64,000 nucleotides of DNA from an uncultured bacterium (GTDB lineage Bacteria > Zixibacteria > MSB-5A5 > UBA10806). How positions within the stretch are numbered: position 1 is the stretch's first letter; each line of letters begins with the position of its first letter. The notes under the pieces are model-generated. The model was not told the origin of the DNA. It made no database searches and worked only from the letters and a program-made list of their open reading frames with translations. The position numbers were made by a program, and so were the translations under genes. Below, piece after piece: positions 11,500 to 26,529 of this stretch. The stretch spans positions 76,962-140,961 of the forward strand of contig CBEUCH010000009.1 of assembly GCA_965541585.1 (NCBI GenBank). Reading direction: 5' to 3'.

Positions 11500-11937
11500 G
11501 TGAAAGCAGTCCTGCAGCGGGTCGCCGAGGCCTCCGTGGAGGTCTCAGGGGAGATGATTGCTTCTACAGGTCGCGGGCTCTTGCTTTTGATTGGAGCCGA
11601 TCAGGGGGATTCCGAGAAGAATGCCGATTCTCTGGCCGACCGTTGCCTGGGATTGCGGATCTTCGAGGACGATGAGGGTAAGATGAACCGCTCCCTGGTC
11701 GATACCGGCGGTGATCTATTGGCCGTAAGCCAGTTTACGCTATCGGCGGATCTCTCTAAAGGCAGAAGGCCGAGTTTCACCTCCGCCATGAAGCCGCCCG
11801 AAGCGGAAAAGCTCTTCGACTATTTCGTGAAAAGGCTGATGGAAAGTGGATTGAATGTAAAAACGGGACGATTCGGGGCCAGGATGAAGGTACGGCTTAT
11901 AAATGACGGACCGGTTACGTTCGTCCTGGAAGGATGA
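11500..11937 (+). CDS. dtd: D-aminoacyl-tRNA deacylase
   Basis: QRV, SQFTL, GRRPSF and NDGPVT motifs. Confidence 0.97.
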   Translation: MKAVLQRVAEASVEVSGEMIASTGRGLLLLIGADQGDSEKNADSLADRCLGLRIFEDDEGKMNRSLVDTGGDLLAVSQFTLSADLSKGRRPSFTSAMKPPEAEKLFDYFVKRLMESGLNVKTGRFGARMKVRLINDGPVTFVLEG

Positions 11938-18965: not shown

Positions 18966-21659
18966 ATGAATCAGAGAGAGTTTGAAGGCAACACCCGTTC
19001 ATTCGTTCCCATATCCAACGGGACCATAATCTTCCACTACAAGGTCATTAAGAAGATCGGCGCCGGTGGCATGGGCGAAGTGTATCTGGCCGAAGACACC
19101 AGGCTTGATCGTAAGGTCGCACTCAAATTTTTACCGCTCCATCTATGTCCGGATGAAGATTACCACATACGATTCAAAAGGGAAGCCCAAGCCGTTGCTA
19201 AATTAAATCACCCTAATATAATTACAGTCTATGAGGTTTCAGAATATCAAGGACGCCCATTCTTCGCGATGGAGTTGGTCGAGGGTCAATCATTACGAGA
19301 ATTATCCTCAAGTAAAGGATTAAGCTGCGAGAGAATTATTGAACTTGCCATTCAGATATGCGATGGTCTAAGCGCCGCTCATGAGAAAGAAATAGTTCAT
19401 CGAGATATTAAACCGTCCAACATCGTTATCGACGCTTATGGCCGTCCTAAAATTCTTGATTTTGGTTTGGCGGCAATTCGGGGCCGTGAACAAATTACCA
19501 AGACCGGATCTACTCTGGGTACAATAAGATACATGTCACCAGAGCAGGTAGAGGGAAGAAAAGTTGACAGTAGGTCAGACCTGTTTTCACTCGGTACCGT
19601 TCTTTATGAAATGATCGCTGGCCGCACCCCATTTGAGCGCGACAATGAGGCCGCCACCCTAAAGTCCATTGGTCAAGACAATCCTGAGCCGCTGGGAAGG
19701 TACAAGTCCGATATACCTGATGAACTTCAACGCACAGTTTCCAAGTTGCTTGAAAAAGATCCGTCAATGAGATATCAGAGCGCCGCAGGTGTTATTAGTG
19801 ATTTGAAACCACTTATTGCATCGACCAGGAGCTCCATGACTTTACCCTCGACCAAACAGAAGAACAGATGGCCTCTTGCGGTCGGTGGGCTGGTAATTAT
19901 CGTAGGTTTACTGGTAGCAGGTGTAAAATACTGGCCCGACGGTGATACTGGGCATCCCGGTGCGCCAACTCAAGGGCGGATAATGTTGGCAGTACTTCCA
20001 TTTGAAAACCTGGGAGCGCCGGAGGATGAATACTTCGCCGATGGAATCACTGATGAAATCACCTCAAGAGTCGCGGTTCTTAATGGTCTCGGCGTAATTG
20101 CGAGGACGAGTATCTTGCAATACAAGGGCACAAAAAAGCGAATTGCGGAAATTGGCTCTGAACTGAATGTTGACTACATTCTTGAGGGGACGATTCGCTG
20201 GGACAAGTCGGGCAATATCGACAGAGTCCGTATCACACCGCAATTGATCCGGGTGTCGGATGAAACGCATCTCTGGGTGGACAATATTCAAAAAGACCTC
20301 TCGCAGATTTTTGAAGTGCAAGAAGAAATTGCCACGAGTATCGCCGGAGCGCTAAACGTAGCCTTAATAACCGGAGAGCGAGAGACGCTTGTTTATCGAC
20401 CGACCGAAAACCTCGAAGCCTATGACTATTATCTTAGAGCGAGAAACTATGGCGACCATGACGATTTTCTCGCGGCGATTGAATTGCTCGATAAGGCCAC
20501 CGAGCTGGACTCGACTTTTGCATTGGCCTTCGCCTTGAAATCTCAATCACATTCAAATTATGCCTTTGGAGAGGAATTGGGCGCTTCAGAGCATTCCGGG
20601 CCGGCGCGACTCGCTTATCAAAGGGCTTTTGAAATTCAACCTGACTTGGCTGAGGCACATCTGGCCCGCGGGACTTATTTGAATTTAATTGAAAGAGATT
20701 ACTCGAGCGCTCTCGAAGAATTTGAACTTGCTCAGCAAGGACAAGTTGACGAAGCGCAGGTTCTAAATGCAATCTCAATAGTCAAGATGCGACAGGGCAA
20801 ATGGCATGAGGCAATAGCTATCGCCAGGCAGGTCAACAAGCTTGACCCTCGATCATTTCGGGCTGGGTTAGTGGCGATCCAGGCAAACTTGTTCGTTCAT
20901 CAGTACGACGAGGCACTGGAAGCCGTTGAGCGAGCAATCTCTTTAGCTCCTGACGAAGTTGGAATCTATTCCATAAAAGCACAGATTCAGATTAACATGG
21001 GAGCGGATGTCGAGCAGATTCAAGAGACCCTTTCCGAATGGTCACGCCGTACCACTTTAGAGGGATGGGCATTCGAGTCAGAAGGACCGATGTTTTTCGG
21101 ACTCTTTCGCTTATGGAATCAGTCGATTGACGTGGATGCAAAGATCTCTGTTATGAAGTCAAGATTACATGACTATCAGAATCCAGATCAGTATTTCTAC
21201 ACGGGGCTTCTGTATCAACTTAAGGGGGACGAAGTTTCTTCGTACGTCTATCTGGATTCGGCGTGTATCCTGATCAAAAATCGTGTCGCGAAGGCCCGGG
21301 GCGACACTACCGGTCGATTTGAAAATTTCGATCTGGATCACAGCATTTATAATTTTCTTGCGCTGGCTTATTCACAGACAAATAGACATAAGCTCGCTAT
21401 TGATCACGCACAGTTGGCCATGGAAACCATGACTACCGATGACTGCCACTGGTGAGGACCTGGTTCGGTCATGGTCATGGCCTATGTTCAGTTGAATGCC
21501 GGGAATATTGATGTGGCGCTTGATTATCTGGAAGAGGTCTTGTCTATTCCGTCTTCCTATTCGACGGCCTGGGTTGAGCTGGACCCTCTATGGGCGCCGG
21601 CACGCAATCACGTTCGCTACGAAGAAATAATCTTGAAGTACAAGGGTATTTCCTTCTGA
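18966..21659 (+). CDS. Ser/Thr protein kinase-TM-TolB-like-TPR protein with in-frame TGA (candidate selenocysteine, 897 aa if read through)
   Basis: Intact kinase motifs (GAGGMG, VALK, HRDIKPSN, DFG, MSPEQ), a TM helix, LAVLPFEN domain and TPRs. TGA at 21453-21455 is followed in frame by GPGSV and ORF 21471-21659, which encodes the family-type terminus (LEEVLSIPS..LDPLWAPARNHVRY). Confidence 0.85.
21456..21482 (+). promoter_or_regulatory. Putative bacterial SECIS element
   Basis: 11-nt spacer after TGA, then GGTCAT-GGTC-ATGGCC (6-bp stem including one G-U, loop starting with G). Confidence 0.65.
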
Positions 21660-21671
21660 AGAGAAAGTTGT

Positions 21672-21727
21672 GATGGGCCCCGCTCGAAAAAACTGATTGT
21701 TAAGATAATTACCGATAATTAGGAATT
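21672..21727 (+). repeat. Right copy of 56-bp direct repeat (orphan yjbQ 3' end)
   Basis: Translates DGPRSKKLIVKIITDN* versus yjbQ DGPRSRKLIVKIIPDK*. Confidence 0.9.
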
Positions 21728-21856
21728 GCCCAGCCTGCTCCGGCGCTCCGGGAAATAGATCCCCTAACTTAAAGCGGACATATTCGCTATTAATAGGAAC
21801 AATTCGCACTTGAGTTGCAGTTAAGTTAATCAGAATTGACAACGGGGAGTGCAACA

Positions 21857-22906
21857 ATGAGAAAGCAGCTTTTGATCCTAAATCTAATCGCCTTGTTTGC
21901 AAGCGGTTGTGGCGATGATTCAACCGCGCCGGGGCAGGGTGTAATTGTAGATGATGAGATTTACTCCGGCGGGGTGCCGCGCGACGGGATACCAGCCTTG
22001 AACGATCCGGTATTCATAGAGGCAAATCAGGCCATATATTTATCCAGTGCGGATCTTGTCCTGGGCGTAGTCATCGAGGGTGAAGCCAGGGCTTACCCTA
22101 TCAACATCATGAATTATCATGAGATCGTCAACGATCACTTTCAGAGTCGCCCGGTCTGTGTCACCTATTGTCCCTTGACCGGTTCAGGGGTGGTATTCGC
22201 AAGTGTCCTGGACGGGCGGGAGGTTTCTTATGGAGTCTCCGGGCTTCTATTCAGGAATAATCTGATCCCATACGACAGAACCTCGTCCAGCCTCTATTCG
22301 CAGATGTATGTCAGCGGTATCAGAGGAGACTACCGCGATTTCGATTGGCTATTGTATCCCTCTCTGCGATGCACATGGGGATTCTGGAAGAATCATTACC
22401 CGGATACGAAGGTAATGTCTCCGAATACCGGCCATTCCCGGGACTACACCTCGAGTCCTTATGGCAATTATTCTGTGACTTACTCGACACTTTTCCCGGT
22501 CAGGTTTCCGGATAGCAGATACCATCCCAAGCATCTGACTCTGGGAGTGCAATTCGGTGGTCAGGCCATGGCGTTCCCATCGACCGAGCTTTTCAATGAG
22601 AAAGTGGTGAATATCGAACTTGCCGGTATGCCCCTGGTGATTGTCTATGACTCCAACGGCCGGTATATGGGCGTTTATTCACGTCTGGTGAGCGGCGACA
22701 TTCTGAGTTTCTCGTTGATCAGAAACAATAGTTCTAAGACGACAATGACCGACGATCAAACTGGCTCTACCTGGTCGGCTACGGGGCTGGCGACTGACGG
22801 CTCATTAGCGGGGGAGAAGCTGGAACAACTCCCGTTCTATACAGCCTACTGGTTCGCCTGGCACGATTTCTACCCGGAGACCGGGGTTTACACCGCCGAA
22901 GAATGA
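21857..22906 (+). CDS. DUF3179 family lipoprotein
   Basis: Lipobox ASGC. Motifs GG-x-PRDGIPAL, ARAYP, HEIVND, TYCPLTGS, GVSGLL, YDR and YWFAWHDFYP. Confidence 0.88.
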   Translation: MRKQLLILNLIALFASGCGDDSTAPGQGVIVDDEIYSGGVPRDGIPALNDPVFIEANQAIYLSSADLVLGVVIEGEARAYPINIMNYHEIVNDHFQSRPVCVTYCPLTGSGVVFASVLDGREVSYGVSGLLFRNNLIPYDRTSSSLYSQMYVSGIRGDYRDFDWLLYPSLRCTWGFWKNHYPDTKVMSPNTGHSRDYTSSPYGNYSVTYSTLFPVRFPDSRYHPKHLTLGVQFGGQAMAFPSTELFNEKVVNIELAGMPLVIVYDSNGRYMGVYSRLVSGDILSFSLIRNNSSKTTMTDDQTGSTWSATGLATDGSLAGEKLEQLPFYTAYWFAWHDFYPETGVYTAEE

Positions 22907-23764: not shown

Positions 23765-24334
23765 TCAGATAAAAAAGCTCAAGCCGCCAGCTATCTCCAA
23801 TGACGATTTTAGGCTAAGCTCATCCCCGAAGAAGCTACGATATGCAATCTGCATCCTCACCGCTGCATGCTTGCGGAAAAAGTGACGAATACCTCCCTGA
23901 AATCCCACATATCCCTCTGTATCTGTATCACCATTGGAGAGAGAGAGAACTCCCAAAAGGACGCTTGCGAAAGGGGACGTCCTGGCATCCGATTCTCCGA
24001 AAGCAGCCCCTATTCCACCCTCAGTGTTAAAGACTCTGAAATCACCGCCATCGCTTACGTTAAACAAAGAAAAACCGAAGTCGAACACGATCAGCGATTT
24101 CGTCCAAACCGACATCCGCAGCATGGACGTCATCGGGAAAGCGCTTGAACCACCCGGGATCGTTAAATAAGACTCGGTGTTATCTCCTCCAAAATAACCT
24201 TCGAAGGTTAATACGTTGAGACCCCCGAGCAAGGCAAACTCTACGCTGCCGCCATCAGGTCTCTGGGCAAGCGTATTTGATGTAAAAGTCAGAATCGTTA
24301 GAATAGTAAGAGCTAAAGTAATCGTAAATCTCAT
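23765..24334 (-). CDS. Outer-membrane beta-barrel protein (8-strand type)
   Basis: Signal peptide, alternating amphipathic strands and aromatic C-terminus (GGLSFFI). GAGGAG RBS. Confidence 0.75.
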   Translation of the reverse strand: MRFTITLALTILTILTFTSNTLAQRPDGGSVEFALLGGLNVLTFEGYFGGDNTESYLTIPGGSSAFPMTSMLRMSVWTKSLIVFDFGFSLFNVSDGGDFRVFNTEGGIGAAFGESDARTSPFASVLLGVLSLSNGDTDTEGYVGFQGGIRHFFRKHAAVRMQIAYRSFFGDELSLKSSLEIAGGLSFFI

Positions 24335-24615
24335 ACCTTCTCCTCAGTTTCTAAGTGCTCATAATTTCATCATTCATGTGCGCTGAATAAAGACTCTCAT
24401 GCCGCTATCGGGCCTATCCGTTCCCGTAGGTAGCCATGCACATAACAGAAAACTTTCCTCAATCCACATCATATTCAACGATGAGACTTACTCCTTCTAT
24501 TCAGTTTTAGAGCTTCGCAAGGGAAAATCGCGTTTACGCAAATATGGGAACTTTTGCCTATATTAGCAACCTGATTTTCCGGCAGGCGCAATGAAGATAA
24601 TTTCCCTCAACCGGC

Positions 24616-24643
24616 TTGACTTCCCTGATCGATCCCATATATT
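24616..24643 (+). promoter_or_regulatory. Sigma-70 promoter of rib operon
   Basis: TTGACT-16 nt-TATATT immediately before the riboswitch. Confidence 0.65.
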
Positions 24644-24648
24644 ACCCC

Positions 24649-24767
24649 TGTCTTCGGGGCGAGGCGAAAATCCTCGACCGGCGGTGAGAGCCCGCGAGTC
24701 CCGCAAAAGTGGGATTGAGCCGGTGGAATTCCGGTGCCGACGGTGAAAGTCCGGATGGGAGAAGACA
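24649..24767 (+). ncRNA. FMN riboswitch (RFN element)
   Basis: TCTTCGGGGC-GAGGCGAAAATCCTCGACCGGCGGT...AGCCCGCGAG...GAGCCGGTGGAATTCCGGTGCCGACGGTGAAAGTCCGGATGGGAGAAGA matches the RFN consensus. Lies upstream of rib genes. Confidence 0.97.
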
Positions 24768-24795
24768 ACTGATGGTGATGATATACCATCTGTAT

Positions 24796-24817
24796 CCCCC
24801 GAAGTCGGGGTTTTTTT
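24796..24817 (+). terminator. Riboswitch expression-platform terminator
   Basis: CCCCGA-AG-TCGGGG followed by TTTTTTT, overlapping the ribD start region. Confidence 0.8.
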
Positions 24818-24818
24818 G

Positions 24819-25892
24819 TTGGCCGACTTTGAAAAATTAATGGCAGAAGCCTTTGAACTGGCGGAGAAAGGGCTGGGGTATACTAGTCCCAATCCCGCTG
24901 TTGGCGCCATGCTCTTCAAACGCGATCGGATTATTGCCAAAGGCTACCACAGGCGCGCCGGCCTGCCTCATGCTGAAATAGAGGTTATCAGGACAGCCGA
25001 TAAGAATGCCCGCGGCTCAACTCTAATAGTTACTCTCGAACCCTGTCCACATCACGGTAAAACTCCGCCCTGTACCGATGCGATTATCGCTGCTGGTATA
25101 AAAAAAGTCGTGGGGCCCATAACTGATAAGAATCCTCAAGTTTGCGGCAGGGGATATCGAAAGCTTCGCCAGGCAGGTATCGAGGTGGTAAGCGGCGTTC
25201 TGAAAAAGCAGGCCCGGAGATTTTACGAGCCTTATTTTAAATTCATCACCACCGGCCTGCCATTCGTGACACTGAAATTCGCTCAGAGTATCGATGGCAG
25301 GATCGCTACCCGAAATGGCAATTCACGCTGGATATCCTCGCCGGAATCGCTTAAACTATCACATAAGATAAGGGCTGTAACCGACTCTGTGTTAATCGGT
25401 AATGAAACTCTTGGTATGGACAATCCACAGCTTACCACCAGACTTGCGAAAGGCCCCAATCCTATCAGGATTTTGCTTTCCGCCTCCGGACGAGTAGCCA
25501 GACGACGAACCATGTTTACCAACGGGGCGGCGCCAACATATGTCGCCACTGCAACGAATTCGAATTTGAAGCAAAGCGGAAATTTGAAAATCATCAGGGT
25601 CAAAAATTCGAAATCCGGCCTTGATTTGAAAGACCTTCTGTCGAAGCTCGGCAAGATGGGCATAGTCACTCTTCTGGTCGAGGGCGGATCGCAGGTATTG
25701 ACATCGTTTATCAAACAAAGGATGGCGGATAGGGTTATGGTCTTTATCGCTCCCATCATGATAGGCGACGGTGTCCCGGCTATCGGGAACCTGGGGGTGG
25801 CGAACATTAAAGATTCTATAGCTCTGGGTGAAATGGAATGGTTCAAATCGGGACCAGATCTGTTCGTAAGCGGGCGACCGATTTGGGGATAA
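24819..25892 (+). CDS. ribD: Riboflavin biosynthesis deaminase/reductase RibD (start 24816/24819 uncertain)
   Basis: PNP-x-VG, HAE, TLEPCxHxGKTPPC, SIDGRIA, DNP-x-LT-x-R and VEGG motifs. Confidence 0.96.
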   Translation: MADFEKLMAEAFELAEKGLGYTSPNPAVGAMLFKRDRIIAKGYHRRAGLPHAEIEVIRTADKNARGSTLIVTLEPCPHHGKTPPCTDAIIAAGIKKVVGPITDKNPQVCGRGYRKLRQAGIEVVSGVLKKQARRFYEPYFKFITTGLPFVTLKFAQSIDGRIATRNGNSRWISSPESLKLSHKIRAVTDSVLIGNETLGMDNPQLTTRLAKGPNPIRILLSASGRVARRRTMFTNGAAPTYVATATNSNLKQSGNLKIIRVKNSKSGLDLKDLLSKLGKMGIVTLLVEGGSQVLTSFIKQRMADRVMVFIAPIMIGDGVPAIGNLGVANIKDSIALGEMEWFKSGPDLFVSGRPIWG

Positions 25893-25893
25893 G

Positions 25894-26529
25894 ATGTTCA
25901 CCGGTATAATACAGGAAATCGGACGGGTGAAATCGATTGCCGGGAGAGGCGGCAATCGGGCTATCGCCGTGGATTCAAGCAAACTGATCAGCAAACTCGA
26001 TATCGGTTTTTCCATCGCGATCAATGGCGTCTGCCTGACCGTGACGGAGCTTTCCGGGGAAAAATTCATAGTCGAGGCCATCGGGGAGACTCTTAAACGC
26101 ACCAATCTCGGCCAATTAGGCACTGGTTCTCCTGTAAACATGGAAGTGCCATTACGGCCGGATGACTTACTTCATGGCCATCTGGTACAGGGGCATATCG
26201 ATTGTACGGGAATTATCTCCCGAATCTCCCGGGCTGACGGAAGTGTGATCTTTGCCATAGACTATCCCGCTGAATACGGAAAGTTCCTGATCGAAAAAGG
26301 TTCCATAGCGGTCGACGGGATCAGCCTGACAACAGTGGAATTGTCAGACAGCCATTTCACTGTTGCGTTGATACCTCATACGATAGAAAACACCAATTTT
26401 AAATACAGGAGGTCGGGCGAAACTGTAAATCTGGAGTTCGATATGATAGCCAAGTATGTCGAGAGAATGGTTATGCCCGGGAATAGAAAATTAACGGTAA
26501 ACTTTTTAAAGGAGCATGGATTCGGTTGA
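25894..26529 (+). CDS. ribE: Riboflavin synthase alpha chain
   Basis: MFTGII N-terminus, NGVCLTV, GHLVQGHID and DGISLT motifs. Confidence 0.97.
   Translation: MFTGIIQEIGRVKSIAGRGGNRAIAVDSSKLISKLDIGFSIAINGVCLTVTELSGEKFIVEAIGETLKRTNLGQLGTGSPVNMEVPLRPDDLLHGHLVQGHIDCTGIISRISRADGSVIFAIDYPAEYGKFLIEKGSIAVDGISLTTVELSDSHFTVALIPHTIENTNFKYRRSGETVNLEFDMIAKYVERMVMPGNRKLTVNFLKEHGFG

Follow-up and report, generated by a model that had tools for sequence, protein, structure and literature searches.

A well-described bacterial selenocysteine insertion sequence (SECIS) is that of Escherichia coli fdhF. It lies inside the coding region of a molybdoenzyme gene, right after the UGA that is decoded as selenocysteine (Sec). 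The hairpin starts 11 nt after this UGA, comprises six stem pairs with a bulged U in the 5' arm and ends in a GGUC tetraloop, the apical loop beginning 18 nt after the UGA. SelB reads the G and U of this loop. We describe here a similar hairpin in a gene for a transmembrane Ser/Thr protein kinase from an uncultured Zixibacteria bacterium (assembly GCA_965541585.1). The gene lies in a stretch of 64,000 nt, hereafter the window (contig CBEUCH010000009.1, positions 76,962 to 140,961 of the forward strand), where the kinase reading frame is interrupted by a UGA. Comparison with related genes indicates that the hairpin just beyond it, at 21467-21482, is very probably a functional bacterial SECIS. 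A general model of such elements (bSECIS), the one behind the program bSECISearch, is summarised in the legend of Fig. 2 of a 2026 review of the prokaryotic selenoprotein inventory (PMC13188914). It allows a loop of 3-9 nt, a stem of 4-16 bp, 16-37 nt from UGA to loop and a minimum free energy (MFE) of -7.5 kcal/mol or lower, and it expects a G at loop position 1 or 2, in most cases with G or U after it. Table 1 of the same review includes CxxU as a recognised selenoprotein redox motif, and known selenoproteins of this type named there (AhpD-like, SelW-like, GrdA) have a Cys three residues before Sec, as does the kinase. The features of the kinase gene are as follows (TPR, tetratricopeptide repeat).

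18966..21659, plus strand: whole gene read through the UGA; 897 residues with an N-terminal Ser/Thr kinase, a membrane helix, TPR and predicted Sec at residue 830
19038..19778, plus strand: Hanks-type protein kinase domain, residues 25-271 (Pfam PF00069 Pkinase, E 9.6e-53, 179.7 bits)
19869..19931, plus strand: single predicted transmembrane helix, about residues 302-322 (Kyte-Doolittle), preceded by K, K and R
21444..21461, plus strand: codons for C-H-W-U-G-P (CxxU and a conserved Gly-Pro), a motif found in 44 distinct homologues
21453..21455, plus strand: in-frame UGA, predicted to be read as selenocysteine, residue 830; the TGA is conserved in homologues
21456..21466, plus strand: 11-nt spacer GGACCTGGTTC, its first five bases (GGACC) nearly invariant and its last six free
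21467..21482, plus strand: putative SECIS hairpin, with 5' arm GGTCAT (21467-21472), loop GGTC (21473-21476) and 3' arm ATGGCC (21477-21482)
21495..21632, plus strand: TPR end-of-group domain, residues 844-889, downstream of the UGA (NCBIfam NF047558)
21657..21659, plus strand: true stop codon (TGA) of the kinase gene, from the reading frame

An initial annotation, made from the letters of the window alone, had proposed a UGA, an 11-nt spacer, a stem of five Watson-Crick pairs and one U.G pair, and a GGUC loop, all of which the sequence confirms. The fdhF hairpin that it invoked, with its 11-nt distance and GGUC loop, agrees with the K-12 record, where the UGA is codon 140. Both elements lie within the coding region directly after the in-frame UGA, coding continuing for 67 more codons in the kinase gene, and both start 11 nt on, with six stem pairs and a GGUC tetraloop. 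In the kinase gene, however, the loop begins 17 nt after the UGA, one stem pair is U.G and there is no conserved lower helix back to the UGA. The bulged U is also missing, as the annotation had stated, and 43 of the 44 homologues described below are without any bulge. The kinase element would thus work like that of fdhF without being a copy of it. With respect to the constraints in Fig. 2 of the review, it complies in loop size (4 nt), stem (6 bp), loop start (GG) and spacing (17 nt). Seen as RNA only, it would be a bacterial SECIS of the usual kind, close to the fdhF one. What differs is the host, a kinase instead of a molybdoenzyme, and the encoded peptide, since the kinase hairpin specifies V-M-V-M-A and the fdhF hairpin other residues.

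The evidence that carries this reading is comparative. The 285 genomes of the class were searched in six frames with the C-terminal 297 residues of the kinase, a query that holds no RNA-structure information. Thirty loci made by this search were read and 24 more were fetched; 86 weaker matches remain outside this set, and the homologue counts are therefore lower bounds. Nearly all of the top-scoring matches have one in-frame TGA. It occurs at the same site in at least 44 distinct homologues (window included) from 36 genomes and 8 of the 20 families of the class, within the consensus C-[HF]-[WL]-U-[GS]-P-x-x-[VA]-M-[VG]-M-[AT]. Such conservation of a same-site TGA in other organisms is the pattern of a selenoprotein gene. 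The interrupting stop is always TGA, in 44 of 44 genes of this type and in both genes of a CxPU type (46 of 46 in total), and never TAA or TAG. A Cys stands three residues upstream of it in all 46. Regular-expression matches in L044, L056 and L062 were false positives and were removed before counting; the TGA flagged in L084 is the natural gene end only, and single TGA or TAG flags in G269, G082 and G237 mark natural gene ends of proteins without Sec. An unspecific pattern scan with TGYCAYTGGTGAGGNCC retrieved the hairpin in 2 of 120 among the matches listed (L142, L193).

The hairpin is tied to the TGA. All six pairs form in register in 43 of the 44 homologues with TGA, whereas none of the 22 homologues without it makes six pairs, the most frequent number being three. 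Across the alignment of the 44 sequences (A1), standard pairing holds in 99.2% of the 264 cells. The closing pair, which joins the third base of the codon preceding the first Val to that of the Ala codon, is GC in 38 sequences, AU in 3, UA in 2 and GU in 1, and is never unpaired. The third pair (columns 26-37) is UG in 39, CG in 3 and UA in 2. As a control, sliding the 3' partners by 1-3 columns lowers pairing to 2-64%, and RNAalifold, run on the homologue alignment, independently chooses the same helix. Loss of the hairpin where the TGA is kept had been set beforehand as the outcome that would speak against a SECIS; instead, pairing is complete in all but one TGA form and the closing pair covaries, which also answers the annotation's call for a covariation analysis. 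The loop is GGUC in 40 of the 44 homologues (window included), GGGC in 3 and, in an alternative register, GUU in 1. The exception, L020, has the sequence GGUCCAGGUUCUGGCC, without either AUG codon of the hairpin, and can fold as GG-(bulged U)-CCAG / GUU / CUGG-CC, which is very similar to the element of the selD gene in the genome of the window (CCAG-GUC-CUGG within an 8-bp stem).

Codon use points in the same direction. The first Val codon of V-M-V-M-A is GUC in 41 of 41 cases and the second in 40 of 41, while GUC accounts for 30% of Val codons in the genome. Homologues without TGA vary at these residues, and those with TGA fix them. The fixed Val codons imply that V-M-V-M-A is held at the RNA level, in line with the annotation's suggestion that RNA structure accounts for this odd peptide. 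Conversely, the Cys (TGC/TGT) and His (CAC/CAT) codons are both used in either synonymous form, and C-H-W is thus held at the amino-acid level. All four Pro codons are used in the spacer. The Gly codon right after the UGA is GGA in 40 of 43 cases, against 24% genome usage. The invariance of GGACC may reflect a 3' context effect on UGA decoding. GGACC (21456-21460; A1 columns 13-17) is also complementary to the GGUC of the hairpin. The competing GACC/GGUC pairing about which the annotation had warned does exist and wins in a 50-nt context, but it has no comparative support and was rejected: the four sequences with a changed GGA show no compensating change.

Within the genome of the window (G000; 3.52 Mb, 98% complete), a search of both strands for the hairpin 16-mer GGYCATGGTCATGGCC finds two copies and no more, each just 3' of an in-frame TGA in a kinase paralogue. 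A tblastn search of this genome with the C-terminal 297 residues finds three paralogues. One of them, on the minus strand of contig C25 (about 23929-26500; L210, L211), is 23% identical in the C-terminal region and has its TGA in S-E-C-T-P-U-H-S. There the hairpin GGCCAUGGUCAUGGCC follows a 17-nt spacer, so that the UGA-to-loop spacing is 23 nt; 15 of its 16 bases are those of the window, the U.G pair being replaced by C-G. An orthologue of this paralogue in G140 (65% identical) keeps the TGA, the 17-nt spacer and the hairpin, and in another, in G007 (62% identical), Cys, TGA and hairpin have been lost together in one short deletion. The other two paralogues lack all three at the corresponding place.

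The genome encodes the required decoding system, namely a tRNA-Sec (75.6 bits; anticodon tca according to ARAGORN) and the proteins SelA, SelB and SelD (459.9, 341.6 and 349 bits, in that order), the selD gene having an in-frame TGA of its own. The three sel genes are on contig C11, selA and selB near each other. A selA match in another genome of the class (G164:C64:9741-11075) is flagged with one in-frame TGA. Of 1980 long open reading frames (ORFs) in the window genome, 718 end with TGA, 683 with TAA and 579 with TAG; an alternative genetic code with TGA as Trp or Gly is rejected on the strength of these 718 stops. Further selenoprotein genes of this genome were identified by local sequence motifs and, for DUF3179, by likeness to a Pfam-confirmed neighbour of the kinase gene. 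The AhpD-like, Prx-like and thioredoxin-like genes below are likely selenoprotein genes, and the small C9 frame may encode another CxxU selenoprotein.

G000:C12:5353-6420, minus strand: DUF3179 paralogue with TGA in W-U-P-L-C; 13 nt on, an 8-bp hairpin with a GUC loop
G000:C19:264-803, minus strand: AhpD-like gene, Q-C-H-Y-U; hairpin with a GUU loop after the UGA
G000:C16:77276-79459, minus strand: Prx-like thiol:disulfide oxidoreductase domain in a large secreted protein, W-U-P-V-C; hairpin with a GUU loop
G000:C19:15850-17097, plus strand: thioredoxin-like and TPR protein, G-U-E-Y-C; hairpin with a CGUGA loop
G000:C9:46440-46772, plus strand: small frame of 111 codons, P-C-F-I-U-A-G; GCUCC-GGUCU-GGAGC 13 nt past the TGA, the loop at 18 nt

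The review (PMC13188914) already includes DUF3179 among the selenoprotein families. The neighbour in question lies downstream of the kinase gene in the window (21836-22906, plus strand; PF11376, E 2.2e-89) and has Cys in T-Y-C-P-L. A TGA at about 11934-11936 of the window (G000:C9:88896-88898) was rejected as a Sec site: judging from the sequences, it simply ends a D-tyrosyl-tRNA deacylase-like gene, and a Maf-like gene comes next in that frame. A codon-score screen for further read-through TGAs was noisy and missed selD and both kinases, and what it returned are leads only. The stem-loops of the genome's other SECIS elements sit 17-33 nt after the UGA. They are simple structures, mostly with GUC or GUU loops, GGUCU and CGUGA also being found. 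The kinase element is likewise a simple stem-loop after a UGA, though with a stem of 6 bp and a tetraloop where the others have stems of 7-8 bp and a triloop. Unlikeness to the genome's own SECIS elements, the second outcome set beforehand as contrary, was therefore not what was found.

The reading frame itself continues past the UGA. The ORF 18966-21455 (829 codons) ends at the UGA and the same frame is open for 67 codons more, to 21659, with no further stop or frameshift across the 897 codons. The protein belongs to the Hanks-type Ser/Thr kinases by its Pkinase catalytic domain (PF00069); NCBIfam kinase models also match this domain, under their equivalog cut-offs, and several Pfam TPR families match the protein besides Pkinase. 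The predicted membrane segment is strongly hydrophobic, the top Kyte-Doolittle 19-residue windows beginning at residues 301-305, and the positive-inside rule would place the kinase inside and the TPR outside, so that the C-terminal TPR domain is probably extracytoplasmic. Beyond the UGA, NF047558 matches residues 844-889 with 40.6 bits (NCBIfam cut-off 32), and the region is continuous in homologues without TGA, including paralogues and the 140 full-length representatives described below. When the last 297 residues are modelled with AlphaFold2 from a 31-sequence alignment, the model is all helical (predicted local distance difference test, pLDDT, 88.3; predicted template-modelling score, pTM, 0.87), and its closest matches in the Protein Data Bank are generic TPR superhelices (consensus TPR, PEX5). 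In this model the Sec position is residue 230, the last of loop 222-230, and helix 231-244 starts right after it. As the frame, the NF047558 match and the TPR model all extend past it, the UGA stands within a real, continuous domain. The peptide around it, D-D-C-H-W-U-G-P, has the CxxU arrangement. Unlike the known CxxU selenoproteins, which have thioredoxin-like or other redox folds, the scaffold here is a TPR superhelix joined to a Hanks-type kinase; the gene sits in a selenoprotein-rich lineage.

Public gene calls (P0002-P0012, P0013-P0019) end the kinase at about 829 residues, at C-H-W, and in some records the rest is called as an ORF of its own, 57-62 residues long and beginning with an AUG of the hairpin (P0039, P0137). 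When a word-indexed collection of 5.8 billion proteins was queried with residues 740-897, it returned 11 proteins of about 555-831 residues, which contain the pre-UGA part only and are named 'non-specific serine/threonine protein kinase' or hypothetical. A database protein 68% identical to the window kinase is labelled 'candidate division Zixibacteria bacterium'. Scanning 1.84 billion cluster representatives with HMMER yielded 1076 matches at E<=0.001, the best 149 of which were aligned. Among these 149, 7 stop after C-H-W, 2 are fragments from beyond the UGA that begin with M-V-M-A or M-A, and 140 are full-length, with the consensus P-V-S-K-D-A-x-x-G-P. Two full-length forms have a Cys nearby, in another register. 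With no Cys at the Sec column in any of the 140, C-H-W-U appears to have replaced a D-A-x-x loop and not a Cys. Methods that look for Cys/Sec pairs would miss this kinase family because it has no Cys homologue among these representatives.

Several observations weigh against a SECIS. Cys is found at the Sec column in none of the 140 full-length representatives and in none of the 22 class homologues without TGA, and this absence of a Cys-for-Sec homologue is atypical for selenoproteins. All 11 close database relatives are annotated to end at the TGA. GAGGA and the two AUGs after the UGA could serve as a ribosome-binding site and start. The Sec trait is too common in the class to be of help: selA is found in 264 of the 285 genomes, and co-occurrence with the trait can therefore not discriminate. 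The energies are unimpressive. The RNAfold analysis that the annotation had called for bore it out in part, in that the MFE folds of 76-nt and 43-nt stretches include the hairpin, but the z-scores against dinucleotide shuffles are -0.49 (76 nt) and +0.75 (43 nt), not better than chance. The bare hairpin has -5.2 kcal/mol, weaker than the -7.5 of the bSECIS model in Fig. 2 of the review; the 43-nt context reaches -8.3 kcal/mol, using an unconserved 4-bp lower helix, and the hairpin of the C25 paralogue has -7.9 kcal/mol. When the published bSECIS constraints were applied to the 718 TGA stops of long ORFs in the same genome, 56 of these ordinary stops (about 8%) had a hairpin that complies with the model at -5 kcal/mol or better, and 21 still had one at -7.5 kcal/mol or better. 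In a single sequence the hairpin is therefore only a lead. A scan of 21300-21700 against Rfam in E-value mode found nothing relevant, the sole match being a chance one to mir-132 (E 5.7). The covariation must also be read with care. The observed covariation score and percentage paired were reached by none of 500 column shuffles, a significance that the control overstates, the homologues being related. Judged by inspection of the rows rather than from a tree, perhaps three lineages gave rise to the double changes of the closing pair: one f9 group (L043 and L052, with a G.U intermediate in their relative L045), L080, and two copies in G276. The annotation had taken the hairpin as RNA-level support for Sec decoding, and this support comes from the homologues, the single sequence being weak.

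The account that fits these data best is a SECIS. At the UGA (21453-21455), SelB with Sec-tRNA(Sec) would bind the GGUC loop 17 nt downstream and would deliver selenocysteine in place of termination. The product would be a transmembrane Ser/Thr kinase of 897 residues, with C-H-W-U at the start of a helix in the C-terminal TPR domain. From the sequences we infer both SelB binding and Sec insertion, and the Cys and Sec might form a redox or ligand-sensing switch.

A first alternative assumes a split gene with translational coupling, in which the UGA is a true stop, GAGGA a Shine-Dalgarno sequence and one of the two AUGs in the hairpin a restart site for a TPR piece of 62-64 residues, so that the nucleotides would be conserved for ribosome binding and initiation instead of for a SECIS. 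It has some appeal: UGAGGACC is nearly invariant, with the preference for GGA noted above; GAGGA is followed at 12 and 18 nt by in-frame AUGs; GAGGG precedes the first AUG by 7 nt in the C25 paralogue; and gene callers predict a 62-residue ORF at 21471-21659 as well as the like fragments already mentioned (P0039, P0137). Against this, L020 keeps TGA and hairpin although both AUGs are missing from it. A start site would need neither the covariation of the closing pair, which affects two synonymous third positions, nor the C that is fixed as third base of the Val codons. A true stop is also at odds with TGA in 46 of 46 genes when the genome uses TAA and TAG about as often, and with a Cys at position -3 in every TGA form, no full-length form having Cys at the U column. 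Finally, homologues without TGA are single polypeptides and the element resembles the other SECIS elements of the genome. We regard a split gene as very unlikely.

Another model assumes that the hairpin drives read-through or pausing and that the inserted residue is not Sec, a near-cognate tRNA providing Trp or Cys, or that isoforms of 829 and 897 residues are made. Stem-loops 3' of stop codons can indeed stimulate read-through, the hairpin is thermodynamically modest, and no Cys homologue points to a thiol-like role. Yet the dedicated Sec system of the genome makes such a model unnecessary, the loop motif and spacing match those of fdhF in E. coli and of the remaining SECIS elements in the genome, and CxxU is the selenoprotein redox motif of Table 1 in the review (PMC13188914). 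A partial isoform effect under selenium limitation would be compatible with a SECIS as well. The probability left to non-Sec read-through is small. That a chance hairpin lies beside a pseudogene lesion or an assembly error, for which the non-significant single-sequence statistics could be cited, is hardly credible: 44 distinct homologues, spread over 36 genomes, share this TGA and hairpin, a distant paralogue has them too, and the 897 codons contain no other stop or frameshift.

A Sec-type kinase family appears, from text searches, to be unlisted in current inventories, and it would be an unusual one among selenoproteins. Term searches found no kinase or TPR selenoprotein family in the accessible part of the 2026 review (PMC13188914), Table 1 included, which that review presents as the most comprehensive inventory; in the text and 4 supplements of the deep-Sep paper (PMC12013277); or in the text and 1 possibly incomplete supplement of the BSepDB paper (PMC13326102), the database itself not being queried. 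The sole match across the three sources is the tRNA kinase PSTK. 'A histidine kinase' is mentioned among unverified bSECISearch candidates from Deltaproteobacteria in another paper (PMC8318568). No relevant literature was found on selenoproteins in Zixibacteria or Ignavibacteria, or on selenocysteine together with protein kinase and tetratricopeptide.

The distribution of the family is uneven. Sec-type kinases are present in several copies in some genomes: G140 has five (L040, L066, L068, L069, L212), two of them about 2 kb apart on its contig C27, and two stand in tandem on G036:C41 (L037, L020). In the family of the window genome (13 genomes), only the window genome itself has one, and the nearest relatives of its kinase belong to genomes of other families (G225, 67% identity; G140, 56%), a pattern that hints at transfer or at losses that recurred. 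We tentatively put forward a wider proposal, which as a whole is possible but doubtful. It holds that this is the first protein-kinase selenoprotein, a transmembrane Hanks-type kinase with a probably extracytoplasmic TPR sensor, in which a Cys-x-x-Sec redox (or chalcogen/metal) switch gates signalling. The switch would have arisen de novo from D-A-x-x without a Cys ancestor and would have spread, often in multiple copies, in a selenoprotein-rich lineage labelled Zixibacteria. As the last TPR unit is encoded after the UGA, the supply of selenium could, on this proposal, itself decide how much of the kinase is full-length and how much truncated.

The hairpin offers a natural case of RNA structure dictating a peptide, V-M-V-M-A, and, being a compact SECIS, is a candidate for reporter use. 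The interest lies in its host gene, a signalling kinase on a TPR scaffold and not a redox enzyme. If the SECIS reading is true, it would make the window kinase and dozens of its relatives a selenoprotein family, and selenoproteomes can then include sensors.

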